Below, piece after piece: positions 4,599-56,006 of a stretch of 64,000 bases of DNA. The notes beneath the pieces are model-generated. The model did not search any database and was not told the origin of the DNA. It saw nothing but the letters and a program-made list of their open reading frames with translations. Position 1 is the first letter of the stretch. Each line of letters begins with the position of its first letter. Origin of the DNA: Octopus vulgaris (lineage: Eukaryota); contig OX597814.1 of the NCBI GenBank assembly GCA_951406725.2, positions 26,102,001 to 26,166,000 on the forward strand, written 5' to 3'. Both the position numbers and the translations under genes were made by a program.

Positions 4599-5834
4599 CA
4601 GGGTGCATAAGATATTTGAGGACAGATTTATGTTTATAAAAAAACAGATATATAAAAACAGATACTAACTTTATCAGAAAATGGTATGAGGATAAAAATA
4701 AACCTTCTTTTCTATAATGTTATTCAATAAAACCACCTTCAGTTTCAACAACTACTTCTGTATGAGATTTAAATCATCTACATGCTCAAATCAAGTGGTC
4801 CTGGTTCATTTTGAACATTACTCTGACTATAGCAGATTTCAAAGAATCTTTGGTGTTATGGGCATGTTCATTGACCTCTCTCTCTCAACAACACTCCACT
4901 TGTAATAGTCCAATGGATTGAGACCTAGGGAATTAGGAGGCCAAATGTTAAGGGTTATGTGATCAGGAAAATTTTCAGCCATCCATGCCTGTGTTACTAG
5001 AGCCATGTGGCCTGCCATTTCATACACTGTCTATCCAGGGTTTAACAATTACATTGTCTATCCAGGACCTCGATATAGGCAGTAGAATAAAATCTAAGGC
5101 CTATTGGAAAGAAGTAAGGAGACATCACATGTCCTTCGTTGCTGACAACCCCTAAATCCATGGCAGTTGTAGGAAATTTTGCATGCATAACACTTGGAAC
5201 TTCAGAAGGCTCTGCATATAACCATCTGTCATTTCTTCAGTTAACTTTTTGATCTTGGTCGAAGTTTTTCTCATTTGAGGGAAAACCAAATCAAATCTTC
5301 TGCTGGATTTTTCAGTTTGTTTAAGAGTCTTTTAGATCTGATGTAGTGATTTTCTTTTGCTTTTTCTAACAAATTGACCTTTCCTCATCATATAAGACTT
5401 ATACCTGATGTCTTCGTGGGCATTTCTGACTGTTCCTTTTGACACATGGAGATCTCTTGCAAGTGACCTCATGGACTTTCTTGGATTGTAATCAATGGTC
5501 TATTGAATTTGCTAGATAATTTCAGGTGTTCTGACAATTTCAGAGCATTTAGAATATTTTTTATGCTTTGACACTAGTGACATGTTTCCATCTTCAGTCT
5601 CTAGCTCCTTACAAACTTTGTAGACAAAAGATCTGGCAACTTTTAAAAATCGGGATATTTCTAAATCATTATGCTCAGCCTTTATAACCACAACAACAGT
5701 ATGCCTCTTCATTTCTTGAGTAAGCTGAGGGCAAGCTGCCATTATTATTTTCTAAAACAAAGATTATACAGAATTAGCAAAAAATGCTGCAATGATCCAT
5801 AACAGGTATGTCCCCAAATACCTTATGCACCCTG
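4599..5834 (-). mobile_element. Near full-length DD37D/maT-like Tc1/mariner transposon (decayed)
   Basis: TIRs cagggtgcataagatatttgaggaca (4599) and tgtccccaaataccttatgcaccctg (to 5834), followed by TA. Minus-strand transposase from 5742 (MAACPQLTQEMKRH...) with RKSMRSLARDL, an FSNEKNF-like first catalytic block and WPPNSLGLNPLDY. Contains stops and frameshifts. Confidence 0.88.
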
Positions 5835-5884
5835 TATACACACACACACTTATTTATACATATATATGCACAAGATCATAAAAA

Positions 5885-6530
5885 TATACAGACACATGAG
5901 AAATTGGTTTTCTCAAATGCCCTCAGAGGCTCTCTATAGGTAGTAGATAATTTCTGCTACCTAATTTAGTAGTTGAAGAGGATTTACTGAAAGTGTAATT
6001 TCAAGAATAAGAATAAGATGGAGAGAGTTCAGAGAGCTTTGACCTCTTTTAGCAAAGAAAGGTTTCTCTCTCCAAATGAAAGAAAGATTGTGCGATGCAT
6101 GTGTATGAACAGCAATGCTACATGGTAGTGAAACATGGATCCTGAATGCAGAGGGCATGTGAAGGCTAGAGAGTAATGAAGCTTATATGCTCCACTGGAT
6201 ATGCAATGTCAGTGTACATGTGTGACTTAGTGCTAGTGTATTGAGAGAAAAGTTTGGCATAAGAGGAATTGGATGCAGTCTGTAGACAAAAAGATTGTGC
6301 TGGTTTAGTCATGTGATGCATAGGAATGAGGATAGTTGCATGAAGAAACACCTATCACTTAAAGTGGAAGGAAATTGTGGTAGAGGGAAACCCAAGACAG
6401 TTGGATGAAGTATTGAAGGCCAGTATAAAGATGCTGAGCCTTACAAAGGAGATGACAAAGGACTGAGCTATCAGGTACCTTGCTATACTCAAGAAAACCT
6501 GGTCACCACAGCAAAACTGATATCCTAAAG
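5885..6530 (+). mobile_element. RTE LINE RT C-terminal remnant
   Basis: VVDNFCYL...RIRIRWREFREL...RLCDACV*TAMLHGSETW. Confidence 0.85.
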
Positions 6531-6697
6531 CCACACTGGTAATGCTAGCCCATGAGGGGCTCTGCCCTGTTATCCTTTCTCCCATTTATTTCATCATCTA
6601 ACACCCATCATTCCTCTATCACTTGAGAGCAGAATAGGCACATGCTACATCCCCCAGCTTTCTCAGTTAACTCTCTTTTCCACCCAAAACTACTTCC

Positions 6698-6700
<3 letters not shown>

Positions 6701-6776
<76 letters not shown>

Positions 6777-7001
6777 CACACACATACACACATCTATATA
6801 AACATATCACACAGGCATACACACACACAGACTGTTATATTCACTTTCTATTCATTTTGTGAGGCATCAAAATTTTTGGTGCATCATTTCATCCTGGTCA
6901 TTGACACAGTTCAACATTGTGTTTTTAGAGAGCTAAAATGGCTCTTGCATAAATGAAGTATCTCTCTCTTATCCTCCCTCCCTCCCTCTCTCTCTCTATG
7001 T

Positions 7002-7078
<77 letters not shown>

Positions 7079-7172
7079 TGTATATTTATTATAGATAAAT
7101 AAATACACACAAATATATATTTACATATAGAAATTTATTTGTCTCTATATACCTATAAATCTATTATATATG

Positions 7173-7209
<37 letters not shown>

Positions 7210-7818
7210 ATACACACACACATATGCACACATGTATGCATATATACATACATGCATAAATACTTATATAGATAGACAGATAGATAGATAGATAGATATA
7301 GATATATATGTATATACACACATATGAACACATGCACACGCACATATGTAATGATGTGTGTATATATCTATATATGGAAGTATGTATGTATGTGTGTGTA
7401 TATATATATATATATATACACACACACATACATACATACTTCCATATATAGAAATATATATATATATATATATAGAAAGAAGTTAGTATTTTGACATTTA
7501 AACACCGAGGAGTTGAAATTGCACAGTGACAAAGAAGCCTGCCACTCATTATGACAAGAATTTTTTGTGATCATAAGATTTGAACATCAAGATTCCTATG
7601 ACAGTAGCTGTCAAGTTTGGGATACACTTTAACAAAGGTTTGTTGAAACATGTTGATATTATCAACAAAAGAAAACATCAAGATTACTTTCAGGTCCATG
7701 CCAGTACAATATTCTCAATTCAACAGTTTGTAGCTGTATCAGACACTAAACTTAATGAAGCTTACATACACACTCCTACACATATACAAACAGAAATACA
7801 AACCCACACACACACATA

Positions 7819-7888
<70 letters not shown>

Positions 7889-7989
7889 TATATTTATATA
7901 TGTATGTATATATATATGTGTGTGTACATATATATATATATACATATATATTTATATATATACACACATACATACATATATCCATATAA

Positions 7990-8027
<38 letters not shown>

Positions 8028-8085
8028 ATATATATATATATACATATGTGTGTGTGTGTGTGTATGTGTGTATGTATGTATGTAA

Positions 8086-8116
<31 letters not shown>

Positions 8117-8118
8117 TG

Positions 8119-8152
<34 letters not shown>

Positions 8153-8186
8153 TGTATGTATGTATGTATGTATGTATGTATGTATA
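6701..8186. repeat. Cluster of (TA)n, (TG)n, (GATA)n and (TATG)n microsatellites
   Basis: Directly visible. Source of the YIYIY/CMYV pseudo-ORFs. Confidence 0.95.
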
Positions 8187-8377
8187 CAGAATGAGAGAGA
8201 GAGGTGGGGAGGGGAGAGAAAGCAAGTGAGGGTGACAAAGAAAGTAAAATGTATGAGAGAAAAGAAACAGAAAATTATTTCCAGTTCTAAAACTTTTTAG
8301 ACATACTGTTGAGGTGTGATTATTTCTAGTTACAAACTATACACATAGTGCACATGTGCTCACACATACACACACAG

Positions 8378-8408
<31 letters not shown>

Positions 8409-8498
8409 CAAACATATGTTTTTACATATATTTATAGAACAGACTGCAGCAAAAAGCTAAAACCATTTTTATTTCACTTTTTCATTATTTCCTATATA

Positions 8499-8911
8499 GA
8501 GTAAAGATTGTTTGCCAACATAACATTGCAGTCCTGGTTTAGGACGAATGTTGCTGCAATTTAGCCCCAGGAGACATTGTCTCCAGCTGGCTATATGACA
8601 TGATCTGTGTCCTTATATTTTCAAACTAGGGATTCTAGCGACCCCACTCAGCTCAAAACAATATCTGTGTATCGCGATTTCTGGGTTATTTCACTTTATC
8701 AGCACAGAATAATTGTTCAGCTAGATTCCCTTGTTCAAAAATATAAGGACACAGATCATGTTGTATAGCCAGCTGGAGACGATGTCTCCTGGGGCTAAAT
8801 TACAGCAACATTCGTCCTAAACCAGGACTGCCATGTTTTGTTGGTAAACAATCTTTGCTCCAAAGTACTGTCGCTAAATATCTCTTGGGAGATTTATAAA
8901 TAGTAATTTTC
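8499..8911 (-). mobile_element. 413-bp insertion with ~140-bp inverted arms, 13-bp TSD and a central hammerhead (PLE pLTR/retrozyme-like)
   Basis: Arms 8499-8639 and 8720-8860 are reverse complements with few mismatches. Direct repeat tatttcctatata at 8486-8498 and 8912-8924. Hammerhead in the spacer. Confidence 0.85.
8664..8708 (-). ncRNA. Minimal type I hammerhead ribozyme motif (G8A variant)
   Basis: Minus strand reads tctgtg CTGATAA agtgaaataaccca GAAA tcgcga TA cacaga: 6-bp stem I, palindromic stem III tcgcga, AUA site. Confidence 0.8.
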
Positions 8912-8934
8912 TATTTCCTATATATTTTTTATGT

Positions 8935-9280
8935 TTTTGCTTTTGCTTGTTTCAGTCATTAGACTGCAGCCATCCTGGAGCACTGCCTTTCTTTTTTAGA
9001 ATTTTTAGTCAAATGAATCAACCCTAGTACTTATTTTTTTAAAGCATAGTACTAATTCAATGATTCTCTTTTGCTGGTCTGCTAAGTTACAGGGATGTAA
9101 ACACACCAACACCAGCTGTCACAAAGATACGCACACACTCACACACGCAAAGACACACACACACACTAGAAGACTTTGGTCAGCCTGAGGCTATAGTAGA
9201 AGACACTTGCCCAAGGTATCATGCTGTACCATGTGGTTGGGAAGCAAGCTTCTTACTTCATAGCCCTGCCTGTGCCTATA
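8935..9280 (-). mobile_element. tRNA-derived composite SINE (reverse orientation)
   Basis: Reverse complement of the copies at 22190-22605 and 50813-51155 (ttgtttcagtcatt...gctatagtagaagacacttgcccaagg). Confidence 0.8.
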
Positions 9281-9339
9281 CATAGCGTTCTTTCATAAGC
9301 TTACTGCTGATTTACTACTATATATATAACAGTCACATA

Positions 9340-10570
9340 AAATGGAGGGAACTTGTGGAAAAGGAAGACTTGGGAAGATTTGGAGTGAAATAGTGAAGTC
9401 TGATCTCAAGATGTTGAACCTCACAAAATAGATGTTAGAGGACTAAGGTGATTGGTAATTCACTGTGCTCAAGAAGTCACAATCCATCACAGAAAAAATG
9501 AGATCCTAAAACATTTTGTGTACACAAGTACATGTTAGGCTTTGCCCTTACACCCATCTGCCTTATTAAGCACTCCCCTTGAGAGCAAAACTGATGCATA
9601 TTTTATCCCCTACTTTTTATGCTACTACTTGCATCTCTCTCTCTCTCCCTGCAACCACTTCTTTTTACTATACATCCTTCATATTCATTATCATCTTTTC
9701 TCACTGTATTTTTACCAATCACCCCCTTTCTATATCTTCAGTTATCTTTCCCTCCAACAGCATCTTAGGCCCGCCAAACGTAATCTTTAGCACTTCTCAT
9801 ATCTTCTATAATTTTCAATACCCTTCAACATCTGCCATCAATGTTCTAGTCACCTTTGTTATCCACTCATTATAGGCACCCTTATGTACCTCTGATCTCC
9901 ATCTCTGTCACTGTACATCTCTCTTTCACTACTTTTACACTTGCGCACCATCTCTCTACAGTCTCATCTATCTTCCTTCCTGAGCCACTTCTATCTTTCT
10001 CGTTTTACCTACCTCCAAACTGATATTTATCATTAGCTACACCTTCACTCTTACTTATTACTCACTATATTCACCTCCACCCCTGTCTTTAATTATCTGT
10101 TGCTCTCCTCCAGCACTCTTATGAAATAGCCTACACTCTCTTTCTACTTCTCTCAATCCATATTCTCTCCTATATTTTACTCATCTTGTACCCTGAGAAT
10201 TTACTCTGGCACCATCTTTATCTTCTTCCTGGCTACTTCCACCCACCCTTATATATACTGTAGGATAGCCATGTAGCTCCTCTATAGCAAGACACTTGTG
10301 CTTGTCCTCACATTTTAGCCTCTTAACACCTAGCAGAAAGCTATCACCGCATCTCAAATATCCATCTTACTTAGTTGAGGGGTCCTTTTATCTTCTTCTT
10401 GTCAACTTGGGAACCTCACTAATGCCAGTGGCATGAAAAGGAAGCAGAACATCCAGCCATACAAACCATTGACATTGGAGTTTGATGGTGTCCTGTAGCT
10501 CAATGGATCCTGCTAAACCATCCAACCCATTCCAGCATGGAAAACAGATGTTAAACAATGATGATGATGT
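9340..10570 (+). mobile_element. RTE LINE 3' end with long C/T-rich 3' UTR and (GAT)n tail
   Basis: ORF-end remnant (EGTCGKGRLGKIWSEIVKSDL), then ~800 bp of pyrimidine-rich sequence, then ccatccaacccattccagcatggaaaacagatgttaaacaatgatgatg. Confidence 0.6.
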
Positions 10571-25600: not shown

Positions 25601-26772
25601 AATATATATATACGTGCATGTGTGTATGTATGTATGTATGTATGTATGTATGTATGTATGTATGTACAACTGAGTACTCTTAGCACATTGCTTGCTCTTA
25701 GAATGTAGTCCTCACATTCAGCTGTAGGTATATTCTGCAAGGAAAAATTAAAATGCTTTCAGCTTAGATAGGTTGCCATCATTCTCCTTCTCTCTGATGT
25801 GAAGGTCATCATATTTAGTCATATTCCTCTATCTTCTCCTTATTATTATTCCCATTGTCATCATCACAATCATTACTGCCACCAACAGTACCTCACTAAC
25901 TTCCAGTGAACATTGGTTTTTTTTCTTCTTTTTATTATTATAATCAGTTACACAAACAGCTGGCACTATATTATTGTTTTCCTTGTTATTTCTGTGGTGT
26001 TGATTTTGTGTTGTTATTTTCCTTATTCTGTGCCTCTCTTCTATTCAACGTTATTCCTTTCAAATTCGTATTAAATATTGCTTCTCAGTAATTTGATTGA
26101 GATCAAAGTGTATTTATCTGCTCTTATAAGCTTAATATCTAATAAGGATTCTATTAAAGACCACAGATATTAAACAGATATGCAGAACAAAATGATGAGT
26201 TATAGGTTAGCAGTATTACAATTTTTTCAGGATTCAGACTATCTTTCATGTGGCTGTTGTTATTTAGCTCTGATACAATCCTGATTGAACAGACTTTATA
26301 TTCAAGGGCATTCCAGCCATGACTATCTCATATTTTTCCTATGTAATAAAAACCCAGGGCTACATTATTCAACAGGTCTTTTCAAGGACACTAAGTTGTT
26401 ATTTAAATGAGATTCGGTTATTATTCCTAAAAGAGTGAATGACAACATTTAGGCTACTTCATTGGTTTCTCTCACATGGAAATGTAATAGCTTGATTACA
26501 GCCTAAAACCGAAATCAGTACCAGAGCAAAACAATAAACAATTTGATGTTTACAGATATATTTTTAGATACTTTCTATTTCACCATTTTAAAATTTCATT
26601 TATTTTCTTAAATGTTCTTTTTTGTAACATGTCAGTCAGGTTTTACCAAAATACACACACACCAGCAAAATATTAAAAAATGCAACCTATGAACAATTAT
26701 GTTATGTATGCTACTTCCTCTACATCATTACTAGACTGAATTTATTTGTATTTTATTATTTACAAAACACAA

Positions 26773-29063: not shown

Positions 29064-29098
29064 CTGATGAAGGGACTGTTAGGTCTTAAAATATTGGA
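29064..29098 (+). ncRNA. Degenerate hammerhead core in the PLE 3' repeat
   Basis: CTGATGA agggac tgttag gtctt AAAA. GAAA is mutated and stems I/III are not evident. Lies ~220 bp after the PLE stop codon. Confidence 0.45.
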
Positions 29099-29299
29099 CA
29101 GATAAAAGTACAACAGCAACAACAATAAGAAAAAACAAAACAAAGATTACCAGGTAATTTACTTTTAATTTCTATTACCTCATCTTGCTGTCCATTTTGC
29201 ATTGTTTAGCTTTCTATCTCTTTAAACGTTATTATTTGCATTATTTTTATGCCAAGGTATGCTGTGAATATTGAAACCTTCCTAACTGATGGCATTTAG

Positions 29300-36129: not shown

Positions 36130-37624
36130 GTCTCATTGATTACTACAGTTATGAATGAATAAATTTATTGAGTTATATCCATGTGTATTCACTCTAGCCC
36201 ACGAAATTTAGCTCATGTGAATCCTAATTTGTAGAACACATATACTCCAATACGTAAGAAGGAAACATTGAAAAATCACTCCTACATTTCCTTTGTCTAT
36301 TGAATTAATACATGAAAAGTGCATTGTTAGTACTACTCAAACAACCAGCCTAGTCTAAGGGCTGTAACTATCATAAATTTCTGCTCACTCAATCAGATGA
36401 AATTTTAGATAAAAGTTGATGATAAATTAATATTTTATTTTTATTTTTTAATAAATTACTTTGATATATATAATATTTTGTAAATTAATACAAGGCAATT
36501 AATTAATACAAATTAATTTTCACATGTATATGAACAACACACACATATACACACACATTGTATGTGTGTGTATGTGTGTGAACATATACGTTTGCATATA
36601 CTAATTTCAAATATTAACATTTTTTGAAGTGGAAGAGATAATTTTGCATAAGGCAAATCAAAACAAAACAAAAAACTATGTTCAAACCCTTAATGAGCTT
36701 ATGGGTAATGACAAGAAAATTGATGATTATCATAAATATCAGCTGGCAACCAGCCAAAGATAAAAGATGAGCTAACAGTTCACCTTTTATCTTTTATATA
36801 ATAAATCTTAACAAGATTTGTTTTTTTCCTTTAAATATCTCACAATTTTCAAAGAAACAATGAAATGCTTCATATAAAATGATGAACTTATTGAAATGTG
36901 CATTTTCATAAACCAGCTAAATGTGGTAAAAAGAAATAATTGCTGAAGCTGTTGAGAGAATTGATTAAGAGGGATTTGAAGTTAAAGTATACAGAGTACA
37001 GCCATAGATAAAAATATTCAAAGTGATTAACAAGCATATTTTACATTTCTACATTAAATTTTGCAAATGTTCTCTGCAGGATACTGGTCAATCATCATCA
37101 TCATCATTCAACATCTGCTTTCTGTGCTGGCATGATTTAGATAGTTTGACTGGAACTGGTAAGTCAGAGAGCTGTACTAGGTTCCAGTCTGATTTGACTT
37201 GGTTTCTACAGCTGGATGCGCTTCCTAATGCAAACTACACCAAGAGTATTGTGGATGCCTCTCATGTGTCACTGGCACGTGTACCTTTTATGTGTCACCA
37301 GCACAGGTGCCTTTTATGTGTCACAAGCAGGGGTGCCTTTCATGTGTCACTTGCACCAGTGCCTTTTACTGAGAACAGTTGTGAAAATTTATTTTATGAT
37401 TACAGTATAAAAAATTTTTACTCATGCTTACATGTTTATTAATTCAGAACTTCTCCCACTTTCAATGGTGTGCATGATGGTGAGTACAAGACTTTCAGGA
37501 TGGGGTGCCAGTCCTTTGCAGACTCAAACTCCCATCTGTTGCTGGTACTTATTTTCAGCAGTGTGGACTGGAGCAATGTGAGTCTTGCTCAATGATACAA
37601 TTTGCTGCCTATATCAGGAATCAA

Positions 37625-38605
37625 ACCTGCTGCCTTGCAAAAGGAATGTGCTTTCATCTGGGTAACATGCACATTGTGAACTGGGGTGCTATCTTGGAGG
37701 AGGTGGACTCCTTTGGTCAGCATGCCATGCCTCTCTGCTTTGACGGCATCCCACAATTTCTGCAACAGAGAAGCATAATATGCCCCGTTAATTGTGGCAC
37801 CCAGAAAATCCATCATCACTCCTCCGTGCTGGTCCCAAAAGACTGTGAGCATCATCATGCCTGCTGAGAGTTGGACACAAGCCTTCTTTTGGAGGTGGTG
37901 AGTTATCATGCTTCCATTGCTTCGACTTGATCTTTGTCTGGGATCATATTGGTGGACTCATGTTTCATGCGGTGTGATAAGTTTGCTGAAAAAGTCCTCA
38001 TTTTCTTGGCACATTGTCAAAAGAGCCAGGGAGTAATTGACTCATTCCAGCTTCAGAAAAGGTGTGGGCATCTGGGGAATCCATCGTGCAGACAACTTCT
38101 GCACGTGCAACTGTTTGTGAATTATTTTTTCCTTGGACCTTACACTTATCTTCACTTATTAGGCTAGTTGCTATATAGTTATGTGGTGATCCTCCAAAAT
38201 GGTAGCTCCTACTTTATGGATGGTGTCCTCATCAATTGCAGAATGTGGTCATCCAGGAATAGAAGCAGTTTTAACCAATGTCTGACCACATTTGAACTGG
38301 TGATATCTGCTCTTGACTACATCATATGATGGTTCATCGTCACCATAACCTTCTTTCATCTCACTGAGAGTCTCTTTTAGTAATTGACCTTTATAGTATA
38401 AGAATCTGATCACTAATCTGCATTCAACTACCTCCATTATAACACCTTAGTTCACTTCAGCAGTTGTAAAAGACAAACTAATACTAGTAGAAAGCTGCAA
38501 TTTACAATGTGACGTGTAGAGACATGTATGATTATACTTGTACAAGTTCCATTTCCTGCAATAATCAAAAGTGAGTCAGAGGAAATCTTTAATGAACACT
38601 CCTTG
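37625..38605 (-). mobile_element. Mariner-family transposon, 3'-truncated
   Basis: TIR (ta)caaggagtgttcattaaag at 38605. MEVVECRLVIRFLYYKG...; SAGMMMLTVFWDQHGG...TINGAYYASLLQKL...LLQDSTPVH. Confidence 0.88.
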
Positions 38606-48077: not shown

Positions 48078-48153
48078 GTCTCTGATGATGAAATACCCAG
48101 TGTATGGAGATGCTAACCTATCACTTGAGATATCCCAGAAACAGCTGTAAAGC
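48078..48153 (+). ncRNA. Minimal type I hammerhead motif in a PLE-like terminal repeat fragment (~47963-48260)
   Basis: gtct CTGATGA tgaaatacccagtg...cacttgagatatccca GAAA cagctg TA aagc: intact core, palindromic stem III, GUA site, degenerate stems I and II. Confidence 0.75.
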
Positions 48154-51177: not shown

Positions 51178-51965
51178 CATCATTTTCATTATTTAGTGTC
51201 CATTTTCCATGCTGGCATGGGTAAGATGGTCTGACTGAGGCTGGTAAACCAGAGAGCTGCACCAGGTTCTAGTCTGTTTGGGCTTGGTTTCGACTGCTGG
51301 ATGTCCGTCCTCACATCAACTACTCCACAGTGAAATGGGTGTTTATTTTCATGTCACTGGCACAGATGCTTCTTACATGGTATGGGTGCTTCTGTCACTG
51401 GCACATGTCTTTTATGTGTCACTGGCAATTTCACTTAGCTTGACAAGCACAGCAAATCACCAAAAGTCTCAATCACTTGTCATCACTGCCATGAGACTCA
51501 ACATCTAAAGTTCATATTTCACCACCTCGTCCCACATCTTCCCGAGTCTACTTCTTCCTCAGGTTCACTCCACAGTTAGAGATCGGCACTTCTTTACGCA
51601 ACTGTCCTTGTCTATATGCATCACATGACCATACCATTACAGTCTTCTCCCTTGCACACTACATCTGATGCTTCTTGTACACAATTTTTCACTTACACTC
51701 TACCATATGCGCACACTGACATTGCCCATCCAGTGGAGCATACTAGCTTCATTACTTTCAAGCCTTTCCATGTCCTCTGCAGTCACAGCCCATGTTTCAC
51801 TGTCATGTAGCATAGCTGTTCGCACACGGCCATCATACAATCTGACTTTCACTCTGACAAAGAGGTTCTTTGTTACCAACAGTTGCAGAAGCTCTCTGAA
51901 CTTTGCTCAGCTCATTCTTATTCAAGAAGCTACATGCTCAGATCATCCTCCTCCACAGCTAATTT
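51178..51965 (-). mobile_element. 5'-truncated RTE LINE
   Basis: Reverse complement of the 16.4-17.6 kb copy (RIRMS*AKFRELL, TAMLHDSETW), ending in the tail at ~51180. Confidence 0.88.
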
Positions 51966-51974
51966 TGGGTGTAT

Positions 51975-52030
<56 letters not shown>

Positions 52031-52032
<2 letters not shown>

Positions 52033-52275
52033 CAGCGTACGTACACTTTGTTCTCTTATATCTGAATGTAATAGCTGAATGATGGCAGTACAGCCAGAAG
52101 TTGATAGCCCTAATCCTCTTGTTTATATTTGCTTTTGTATTGAGATTTTGCCCCTCCATATTTTAAAGAGGTCTTAGGCCATCAGGTCTTGGAGTCTGAT
52201 GATACGCCATAAAGTTAAACCCTTTATGGACGGGAAACTCAGGGTAAGCCCATAAACCAGCCTTCACCAGAAAAA
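52031..52275 (+). mobile_element. ~245-bp non-coding element with two tandem hammerhead motifs, between (TA)n tracts
   Basis: Motif 1 (52075-52110): CTGAATGA tggc agtaca gcca GAAG ttga TA gccc. Motif 2 (52196-52250): CTGATGA tacg ccataaag ttaaacc ctttatgg acgg GAAA ctcaggg TA agcc. Confidence 0.7.
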
Positions 52276-52525
52276 AAAAATTATATATATATATACATGA
52301 TAAAATAGCCCTGATTCTGTTGTATAGTGTAGATACAGCAATATATTTACATACACAAAAAGGCACCCAGCCTTTCACCTATAAGTGACATTGTGTTATT
52401 TTGACTGCTTGTAACTTCAGTACAACGATGACACACTTGTATGCTACATTATCCTCACCACATATTCACCACTTTAGTTGACTGTAAAACTGCATTGACG
52501 GAACATCTCTAACCATTTCTTCCAG

Positions 52526-53087
52526 ATGGCACACTCAATAGCAAAAAGAGTGGGAGATTGTGGAAGCATATGTGAGAATGGGTTCTGTTAAGCAAATGCA
52601 CAAAACTTTTGAAATCAAGTTTTTCGGTAAGGCTTTACTTGCAAAGAGAATGATACAAATGTTGGTTAAGAAATGGCACTCTATGGGGTCAGTGCACAAC
52701 ACTCCATAACAAAGAAATCCTACAGTTTGAAAGCTGGAAGTTATTGAGAATATTTGCCAAACGTTTACTCAGAAGTACAAAGAAATCAGGATATAAATTG
52801 GCACAGTAATCTCTCAGAAGTATGAGGTCATGCCAACAGGAGTTGAAAAGTCTGAAGTTGAAGCCATATCATTTCAAGTAAAAATGGATGACAAGAACAA
52901 ACAAGTACATTACTACCCATGGCTTTTGAATTGCAGTTGCAAACAATCAATAGAACACATTTGCAAATGAAATGGTGAGTTTTTTTCATGTGCATAAATT
53001 TATTTCTGTGTTTATAATATGTTATGGAACCTAGGTTTTTCATACACTACCACGTATACATATGTATGTATATATGTGTGTGTATAT

Positions 53088-54042: not shown

Positions 54043-54094
54043 GTCTTACAGCTATTTCTAGGATATTAATTAATAATATCCCTTCATCGGAGAC
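54043..54094 (-). ncRNA. Minimal type I hammerhead ribozyme motif (U4C variant)
   Basis: Minus strand reads gtct CCGATGA a gggatatt attaatt aatatcct a GAAA tagctg TA agac. Stem I gtct/agac, 8-bp stem II. Same family as the 48078 motif. Confidence 0.85.
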
Positions 54095-55181
54095 GGTGTG
54101 AGAGGAAAAATTAAGTCATAGTTAGTTTCGATGTGATACAAAATAGAGAGTGAGGTGGAGGAAAGAAAATAGATGTAAGATATGTATGGGTATTGAATTT
54201 GTAAATCCACTTTATAGGAATAATGGTATATATGCAATATTCCAATATCCTTTGAGTAAAATCCAAAAGTCCAACAGAGTTTAATATGAGTCCTTCCAAA
54301 TATAGAGTATATAAGCAATGTAAGATTCCATTATGAGTGAGATCCAGCAGATTTTTAAACTTGGTCATTCCCAGTAGGGAATTTATATACAGTGTTGTAG
54401 AGTCAAGGTTTATATTTAAAATGACCTAGAAATAGGGAGTGTATTAGTATGGTTACATTGAAAACAGGAAGAGAGAAATGAAATAAAGAGAAAAAAAGCG
54501 AAAAAGAGGAGAGAACAAAAGAATAAAAGAGAAAGGAGAGAGAAGATTAGTAAAAATAACAAAATGATAAAAAAAATTAAAAAATAAAGAATAAAAATCC
54601 TGAAGATATGAATAAAGGGAATAAAGAAAAACGAAAAAAGAAAAATTAAGGTATAGATCAGTCAGTGGTCAGTGGAGATAATTTGAAAGTAGAAGTGGGG
54701 ATAGAGAGAGAAAGGTATTATAGTGTAAAAGATAGAGGAATGGGGAGGTTTAAGAGATAGAGGAAAGACCAATGTATAGTAGTATCTTCTAATTGTGAGG
54801 CAAAGATATGAAGAATTAAGGAAATAGCAGTTCAGTGTTTAGTAGTCTGAGAAAATATATATGTGAAGATGCATATACATGTATACATCAGATAAGTTAC
54901 ATATACAATCCTTATTCGCATGCGTATGCTCTCATACACGTTCGCTTATACACTCATCTGCGTGTATCATTGCCCCTGCATATGCAGGTATATATACCTT
55001 GCAAGTGTACATATGTTTACATATACCCACATGCATGCATATATGCATACCCTCACTCGTACTTATATACACATGCATGGGTGTGTGCTCGTACATATGA
55101 ATATAATCAGATGGTTGTATATGTGAGAAACTAGACAGGGATTATGAGTTAGAGTGTAAATTTATAGTTTAATGGGATTAC

Positions 55182-55592
55182 CTAAAAATTATTGCGGAAA
55201 TGTACTGTATGGTCATTCTGGCATTTGAATTTGTGGTAGAATTTAAATGTGTGGTAACAGCGGTGGTTGCATGTGCTTAGTGCCTCGTTATGCTTATTAA
55301 GCAGTGTTGGAGAGTTGTGCTTTAATATTTGAAGTGCCTCCTTCAGGCAAAGCTTGCAGATTGAGCGTTGACCTTGGCAGGGAAGTCCTGAGTCCAGTAT
55401 GGACCATGATAGGGTATAGGGTATATTTGCATTTTTGAGATGATGTATGTGGTTGGTGAATGTTGTAGATTTACTATGTTTATCGTATCTAAAAGAGTGG
55501 AGATGAGTGGCATATCATTGCTTAAAATGCTTTGTTGATTCTATGTATATGGCTGTAGCATTGTGTAATAGGTTAAGGACCGTGCATTTGTA
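55182..55592 (-). pseudogene. PLE GIY-YIG endonuclease domain (one in-frame stop)
   Basis: YKCTVLNLLHNATAIYIESTKHFKQ*YATHLHSFRYDKHSKSTTFTNHIHHLKNANIPYTLSWSILD...CKLCLKEALQILKHNSPTLLNKHNEALSTCNHR. Confidence 0.88.
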
Positions 55593-56006
55593 GGGCATAC
55601 GCATGTGAATAAGGATTGTATATGTAACTTATCTGATATATACATGTATATACATCTTCATATATATTTTCTCAGACTACCAAACACTGAACTACTATTT
55701 CCTTAATTCTTCATATCTTTGCCTCACAATTAGAAGCTACTACTACACATTGGTCTTTCCTCTACCTTTTAAACCGCCCCCCATTCCTCTATCTTTTACA
55801 CTATAATACCTTTCTCTCTCCAGCATGACCACAGTCAAATGACTGAAACAAGTAAAAGGATAAAAGAATAAAAAACTATATATGCACACACACACACACA
55901 CACACATACACACATATATTTATGTGTGTGTGTGTATGTGTGTGCATGTGTGTGTGTGATGAATATGTCATGATGTTATGAATTATGTAACTTAGTTATC
56001 ACAGTT
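55592..56006 (+). repeat. Composite inverted duplication (of 54704-54932 and 53444-53624)
   Basis: 55592-55820 is the reverse complement of 54704-54932, and 55818-56006 is the reverse complement of 53444-53624 (microsatellite part differs in length). ctc is shared at the junction. Confidence 0.9.

Follow-up and report, generated by a model that had tools for sequence, protein, structure and literature searches.

The stretch of Octopus vulgaris DNA described here is most probably a decayed copy of a ~120-nt, high-copy module, which is likely the 3′ end of a family of Hydra-type Penelope-like elements (PLEs), or of a coding-free derivative of such a family, and was likely copied into a (TA)n tract by the family's enzymes from an uncut RNA; this copy would represent a rare long variant carrying a hammerhead-like relic upstream of the module. 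All positions are those of the window, i.e., the entire 64,000 nt that were analysed, which are AT-rich, animal-type DNA, rich in microsatellites and decayed mobile elements. The features of the locus are as follows.

51976..52031, no strand: left target, (CA)n then (TA)n, the TA array spanning 51991-52031
52032..52067, + strand: repeated short block, at ~20-33 times the depth of the hammerhead-1 block, with a recurring 12-mer at 52056-52067
52069..52113, + strand: hammerhead 1, decayed (descriptor scan, contig alignments); stem I 52069-52075/52107-52113, altered core 52075-52082, stem II 52083-52086/52093-52096, GAAG 52097-52100, predicted cut after 52106
52107..52146, + strand: T-rich linker of a small subfamily, 6-12 contigs in run X2 (depth; records 1, 10 and 26)
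52147..52266, + strand: high-copy ~120-nt terminal module, made of a small hairpin (52153-52156/52168-52171), hammerhead 2 and a tail (depth, loose ends)
52185..52258, + strand: hammerhead 2, type I (core, stems, descriptor scan, family letters); stem I 52185-52195/52247-52258, core 52196-52202, stem II 52203-52233, GAAA 52234-52237, near-palindromic helix III 52237-52245, predicted cut after 52246
52247..52270, + strand: tail past the predicted cut, kept in family copies (shown in each of the four runs by loose ends behind 52238)
52271..52296, no strand: right target, A-run (starting at ~52270) and (TA)n

An earlier note on this DNA had placed an element between (TA)n tracts, and this is what the letters give, with (TA)n up to 52031 and, from ~52270, an A-run followed by (TA)n. 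The fold of the whole stretch is close to that of its shuffles (z 0.58). No further copy of the element was found by blastn inside the window, and an Rfam search of 51500-52800 at E up to 10 returned no hammerhead; at gathering score, the sole Rfam match of the window is a U2 remnant. This remnant (26077-26192, + strand, 53 bits) is a truncated copy of the U2 snRNA and likely a pseudogene.

Organization and Abundance of the Repeat Family

The family was described from contigs of 4 of 24 public runs (X2, X4, X19, and X22) aligned to 52032-52631 with a likeness of at least 80%; the two DNA runs gave 1143 (X2) and 1208 (X4) such contigs. Throughout the depth, positions 52110 and 52488 carry letters other than those of the window, so that the contig of the locus itself is apparently absent from the aligned set and the aligned contigs are, thus, paralogues.

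Summed depth, which according to the tool's own warning is not a copy number and where contigs tell of presence and not of absence, amounts to 26,500-111,000 over 52152-52251, to ~250-460 over 52072-52131, and to 5,300-10,300 over 52032-52071, single listed contigs in X2 having a depth of 19-80. With the hammerhead-1 block (52072-52131) set at 1x, 52032-52063 stands at ~20-33x and 52152-52251 at 86-360x (the latter relative to 52072-52091); as an order-of-magnitude reading, this means hundreds of copies for the module with motif 2 versus only about five other copies for motif 1. The 266 nt that had been taken for one element, thus, come apart into three blocks of very different depth, with motif 1 missing from nearly all family depth. 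Judging from the family contigs, copies with both hammerheads form a rare long variant and are not the family unit.

Loose ends of the alignments cluster at 52146-52152, where the sequence upstream is mixed (agreement of 0.45-0.63 in X2 and X4), so a ~120-nt terminal module is common to copies that differ further upstream; the longest family pieces end at 52262-52266. Depth does not fall steadily toward the 5′ side, and plain 5′ truncation fails to explain it because 52032-52063 is abundant again. The 12-mer at 52056-52067 recurs in a loose-end consensus of X4 right before 52147 (rough chance 0.02). The block 52032-52067 may represent either the family's usual 5′ portion or the end of a separate repeat, and the common form may join this block to 52147 without motif 1; if it does, we would be dealing with a ~155-nt, single-hammerhead, non-autonomous element and not with a pile of truncated copies.

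Joints between copies were listed for 14 cases, 6 of which connect opposite strands, and record 26 consists of two copies placed head to head. A (TA)n flank is present in this copy and at one further contig end, in X19. The runs X19 and X22 were guessed to be RNA and their contigs are of uncertain kind; family contigs are present in both, in X22 at 0.003-0.026 of the DNA depth over the bins of the element, and no junction from 52246 to 52107 appears among the contigs listed for these two runs; we count them as evidence in neither direction.

The Downstream Hammerhead

By sequence and predicted fold, the downstream hammerhead (52185-52258) is a genuine motif. Its core is intact (CTGATGA with GAAA...GTA, and NUH at 52244-52246), as the earlier note had read it (CUGAUGA/GAAA/GUA), and the perfect 8-bp stem II of that note (52207-52214/52222-52229) is borne out and is part of a longer stem, in which 11 of 11 pairs form around two bulged A; helix III forms 3 pairs as a monomer. 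A descriptor demanding the exact core and at least 8 pairs in stem II finds one site in the window, versus 0.06 on average across 100 dinucleotide shuffles.

Stem I, rightly called weak, has 8 of 11 pairs in this copy, with two mismatches adjoining the core, and is repaired in family copies. Indeed, the family has T at 52188 (63-93% of depth) and G at 52193 (67-93%), and the loose-end consensuses have an A-T pair in place of the G52194/G52248 of the window, so that all three mismatches are restored. Among the listed rows, the sole core position to vary is position 7 (52200), a freely variable site, with C in 45-73% of depth and otherwise T; in one loose end, stem II is closed by U-A and helix III reads ACCC-A-GGGT. 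From these family letters, hammerhead 2 is conserved by structure across the family. The copy in the window is probably inactive since, for the same 74 nt, the active fold is predicted at -5.0 kcal/mol versus -18.7 kcal/mol for the best fold.

The Upstream Motif

The two cores start at 52075 and 52196, i.e., 121 nt apart on the + strand, which agrees with the claim of two different hammerhead motifs ~120 bp apart on one strand. The first had been described as decayed, with GAAG and a 4-pair stem II, and its letters are as stated: the 8-letter core is CTGAATGA, stem II has 4 of 4 pairs, and GAAG stands for GAAA, while stem I reaches only 2 of 7 pairs if C52075 is counted as C3 of the core and 4 of 7 if it is counted as part of the stem. 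Motif 1, thus, fails as a type I hammerhead defined by a CUGANGA plus GAAA core with stem I in register. An alignment of motifs 1 and 2 gives a best local score that is matched by 218 of 300 shuffles, and neither is a copy of the other.

How far motif 1 exceeds chance depends on the space considered. With a relaxed descriptor fitted to motif 1, the window yields 1 site versus 0.56 expected per shuffled window, and window-wide the motif is not above chance; for any one stretch of 150 nt on a single strand, the expectation is ~0.0007 sites, with a descriptor fitted after the fact, and the presence of motif 1 within 150 nt of motif 2 is unlikely to be due to chance.

Among other copies, no substitution at 52072-52109 appears in the 40 listed of 77 substitution rows and no indel in the indel table, hence nothing that would restore the core, and the broken core seems to be common to the few sisters. 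Record 9 and a second contig contain 52071-52109 upstream of hammerhead 2, followed by GCCATTA, which by eye pairs at 6 of 7 positions with 52069-52075. Because these two paralogues restore stem I, motif 1 probably descends from a real hammerhead that is now broken in this copy and, in the rows listed, in its few sisters as well. By eye, the layout of motif 1 (TAATAG, a core followed by an additional U, a short GC stem) resembles that of Penelope-15_HM in File S2 of PMC8557442.

Likeness to Hydra-Type Penelope-Like Elements

The module probably works like the end of a Hydra-type PLE and probably is one, known here without an attached ORF. Several PLE-like features are observed: a high copy number, a conserved hammerhead fold, a tail past the cut, (TA)n on both sides, variable 5′ ends, and head-to-head inversions. 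As in the Hydra clade, a canonical hammerhead with a short palindromic helix III lies near the 3′ end, its cut here being 24 nt before the A-run; this copy is inserted into (TA)n; and the opposite-strand joints, record 26, and the mixed ends at 52146-52152 are those of 5′-variable and head-to-head inverted copies.

These traits have close counterparts in the literature. A 4+1+4 palindromic helix III like that of the module is found in 17 of the 26 Hydra rows of File S2 (PMC8557442), Penelope-3_HM being one letter off, and 15 of 26 have a U right after the CUGANGA core; the hammerhead lies ~100 nt from the 3′ end (in Hydra-1_oBim, at 2403 of 2507). The same study gives (TA)n as the insertion target of almost all Hydra families (PMC8557442), and head-to-head inverted copies have been described for PLEs (PMC3846280; PMC8557442). 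The module, thus, shares with the Hydra-clade ends published in 2021 (PMC8557442) a type I hammerhead at most ~100 nt from the 3′ end, the 4+1+4 helix III, the U after the core, a short tail, insertion into (TA)n, and 5′-truncated and inverted copies. It departs from them in having no linked ORF and in the stem I of the family, with ~11 of 12 pairs versus 3-10 in File S2; in addition, a second, different hammerhead relic upstream is listed for none of the Hydra consensuses in File S2 (PMC8557442).

The hammerheads published for truncated PLEs also resemble the module by their long helix II, their palindromic helix III suited to dimers, their thousands of scattered single motifs, and their high variability, whereas helix II is here closed by U-G or U-A and not by G10.1-C11.1. 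Dual motifs in those accounts are 100-700 bp apart on opposite strands, whereas the two motifs here are different and on one strand. In the open literature searched (mostly titles and the beginnings of abstracts), there was no account of this family or of an unlike, same-strand hammerhead pair in a PLE end.

Coding sequence was sought at the locus and beyond. As the earlier note had said, no ORF is associated: no PLE ORF overlaps or adjoins the element at the locus, and tblastn with homologues matches only 55158-55598; upstream of other copies, the sequence examined consists of 30-letter consensuses. Scans for DNA around Hydra-type proteins gave no confirmed locus, and a word-index search for longer homologues found none. 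Five 10-letter words of the element gave no match to published Hydra 3′ ends, three of them matching elsewhere by chance and two being absent. A look-alike of ~24 letters, seen by eye between 52149-52171 and the 3′ UTR of Hydra-1_Obim, was not counted as evidence. Exact-pattern scans for stem II yielded 0 matches in the metagenome, viral, and prokaryote collections; a looser 19-letter pattern matched at least 120 prokaryote loci versus ~69 by chance, and these were rejected because the best blastn match to the element comprised 24 letters around the pattern.

As we infer from published PLE work, a GIY-YIG endonuclease would nick AT-rich DNA, and the RT would start copying the RNA immediately past the hammerhead, with early stops or jumps. 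The template would be an RNA left uncut at hammerhead 2, which the enzymes of the family would insert into a (TA)n microsatellite; for an anole PLE, uncut RNA is given as the main substrate of insertion in vitro (PMC11167929). The present copy would stem from a rare longer variant with a second, unrelated hammerhead-like relic upstream.

Alternative Explanations

The earlier note had proposed a retrozyme-like unit, in which both hammerheads cut and the ~140-nt RNA so released circularises and is reverse-transcribed. Such a unit would account for two same-strand motifs with cut sites 140 nt apart, for the lack of an ORF, and for the conservation of hammerhead 2, and PLE ends are the reported source of animal retrozymes (preprint 10.64898/2026.07.22.740005). 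According to Cervera and De la Pena 2020 (PMC7229834) and Li, Clavereau and Pollet 2026, animal non-LTR retrozymes are, like this module, short, non-coding, low in GC, endowed with a type I hammerhead, and dependent on PLE enzymes, and solo monomers exist; they are, however, built of one unit repeated in tandem, every repeat having the same complete hammerhead, whereas the locus has an unlike pair, one of them broken. With the first core broken, fewer than two complete hammerheads are present, and this locus would not release a 140-nt circle. The 6-nt and 9-nt segments of helix III are not complementary, so that motifs 1 and 2 would, by their letters, form no joint dimeric ribozyme; the fold of the 140-mer is close to that of its shuffles (z -0.86), and copies retain the tail past the second cut. 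Tandem arrays, which the earlier note suggested looking for, are absent from the locus, and among the 14 joints listed there is no return to an earlier point of the element, which says little about other loci as contigs collapse repeats. With motifs that are unlike, a first core that is unusable, and motif 1 missing from nearly all depth, we consider the circle-releasing retrozyme very improbable; what stands of the earlier reading is a piece of hammerhead-bearing retroelement in (TA)n with a genuine second hammerhead.

Another possibility keeps a role for the upstream cut in a linear template. A master with two hammerheads would have produced a ~160-nt RNA (52107 to the tail) whose 5′ end was set by that cut and which a PLE enzyme inserted, the present copy coming from an uncut or decayed master. 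Depth in X2 jumps from 78 at 52110 to 436 at 52112, and records 1, 10, and 26 align from 52111, with 228, 63, and 173 letters upstream left unaligned; because the only contig spanning 52110 has A there, which clips alignments, these copies are taken to begin within 52107-52111, next to the cut predicted after 52106. The stem I restored at 6 of 7 pairs in record 9 and the second contig also speaks for a working upstream hammerhead, but the restored stem uses C52075 and leaves the core without C3, no indel being listed at 52071-52109. Only a handful of contigs is involved, some of them possibly one locus seen across runs; the step at 52111 could be a point of recombination or of template jumping; and nearly all family depth starts at 52146-52152 instead. 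We, thus, hold this history to be unlikely. The same doubt applies to its general form, a short coding-free PLE derivative in which two unrelated hammerheads share the work, the upstream cut setting the 5′ terminus of the template and the downstream hammerhead, left uncut, serving the PLE enzyme as its 3′ recognition fold; this too we would accept only with considerable reserve.

At the opposite end, motif 1 might resemble a hammerhead by chance alone, as a piece of AT-rich sequence captured upstream of an ordinary PLE end that only ever had one hammerhead; this differs from the explanation we prefer on motif 1 alone and keeps the reading of the module as a PLE end. The 0.56 sites per shuffled window of the relaxed descriptor, the alterations in the core and in the G12-A13-A14-A15.1 box, and the 2-4 pairs out of 7 in stem I are all compatible with chance, but the ~0.0007 expected in a given 150 nt (again with the descriptor fitted afterwards), the restoration of stem I in two paralogues, and a layout that by eye is like that of published Hydra hammerheads, e.g., Penelope-15_HM, make a mere look-alike quite unlikely. 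Our preferred reading, thus, remains that of a PLE end with a relic upstream.

Neighbouring Elements in the Window

About 3 kb from the module, 55185-55598 (− strand) is a remnant of the C-terminus of a Hydra-type PLE GIY-YIG endonuclease. It has 1396 homologues at E up to 0.001, the alignment keeping CxCX5C, CxxC, and CxH, and an Argonauta protein is the sole named one of the 8 homologues looked up. The remnant is framed by an inverted repeat of ~230 nt (54704-54932/55592-55820, 91-100% complementary), of a kind that PLE insertions leave. A second hammerhead family is found at 54047-54090 (− strand), with CCGATGA (one core change), a 9-pair stem II, and a palindromic helix III; it lies ~90 nt before a TA/CA run and 1.1 kb downstream of the remnant, and is probably the 3′ end of the element from which the remnant comes. 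Elements of the Hydra type are, thus, present in this genome, which favours the reading of the module as a Hydra-type end. When the module is compared with this hammerhead region, 266 of 300 shuffles score as well; because the two regions are unlike, the remnant is not the parent of the module and belongs to a different insertion.

Two decayed hammerhead-like remnants on the + strand, at 48082-48152 and 29064-29100, resemble the 54090 family, the likeness being not significant for the former (120 of 300 shuffles) and borderline for the latter (16 of 300). Closer to the module, 18 of 22 letters of 52304-52326 match 52103-52124 (8 of 300 shuffles as good) and 52367-52380 is a short look-alike of the tail of motif 2, a few paralogous contigs covering 52302-52377; 52304-52380 may represent a third such fragment, likewise worn. 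The region 52450-52630 is a multi-copy repeat with contig depth up to ~2,500, which by eye resembles a Tc1/mariner remnant. A fragment of a mariner-type transposase lies at 37589-37957 on the − strand (Pfam PF01359, E 1.8e-11).

Significance

As most likely read, the module adds one more abundant, hammerhead-bearing family of PLE ends to a known class, in a genome assembly where PLEs make up 6.83% with 190 families (PMC13282606, supplement). The role of the hammerhead in endonuclease-bearing PLEs is called unclear in PMC8557442, and reads ending at the hammerhead cut are given as not found for the anole PLE in PMC11167929. The wider use of the locus lies in the few copies whose 5′ ends fall next to the predicted cut of motif 1: if it is true that they start at the upstream cut, these genomic copies would be a natural record, of a rare sort, that a hammerhead cuts during the PLE cycle.
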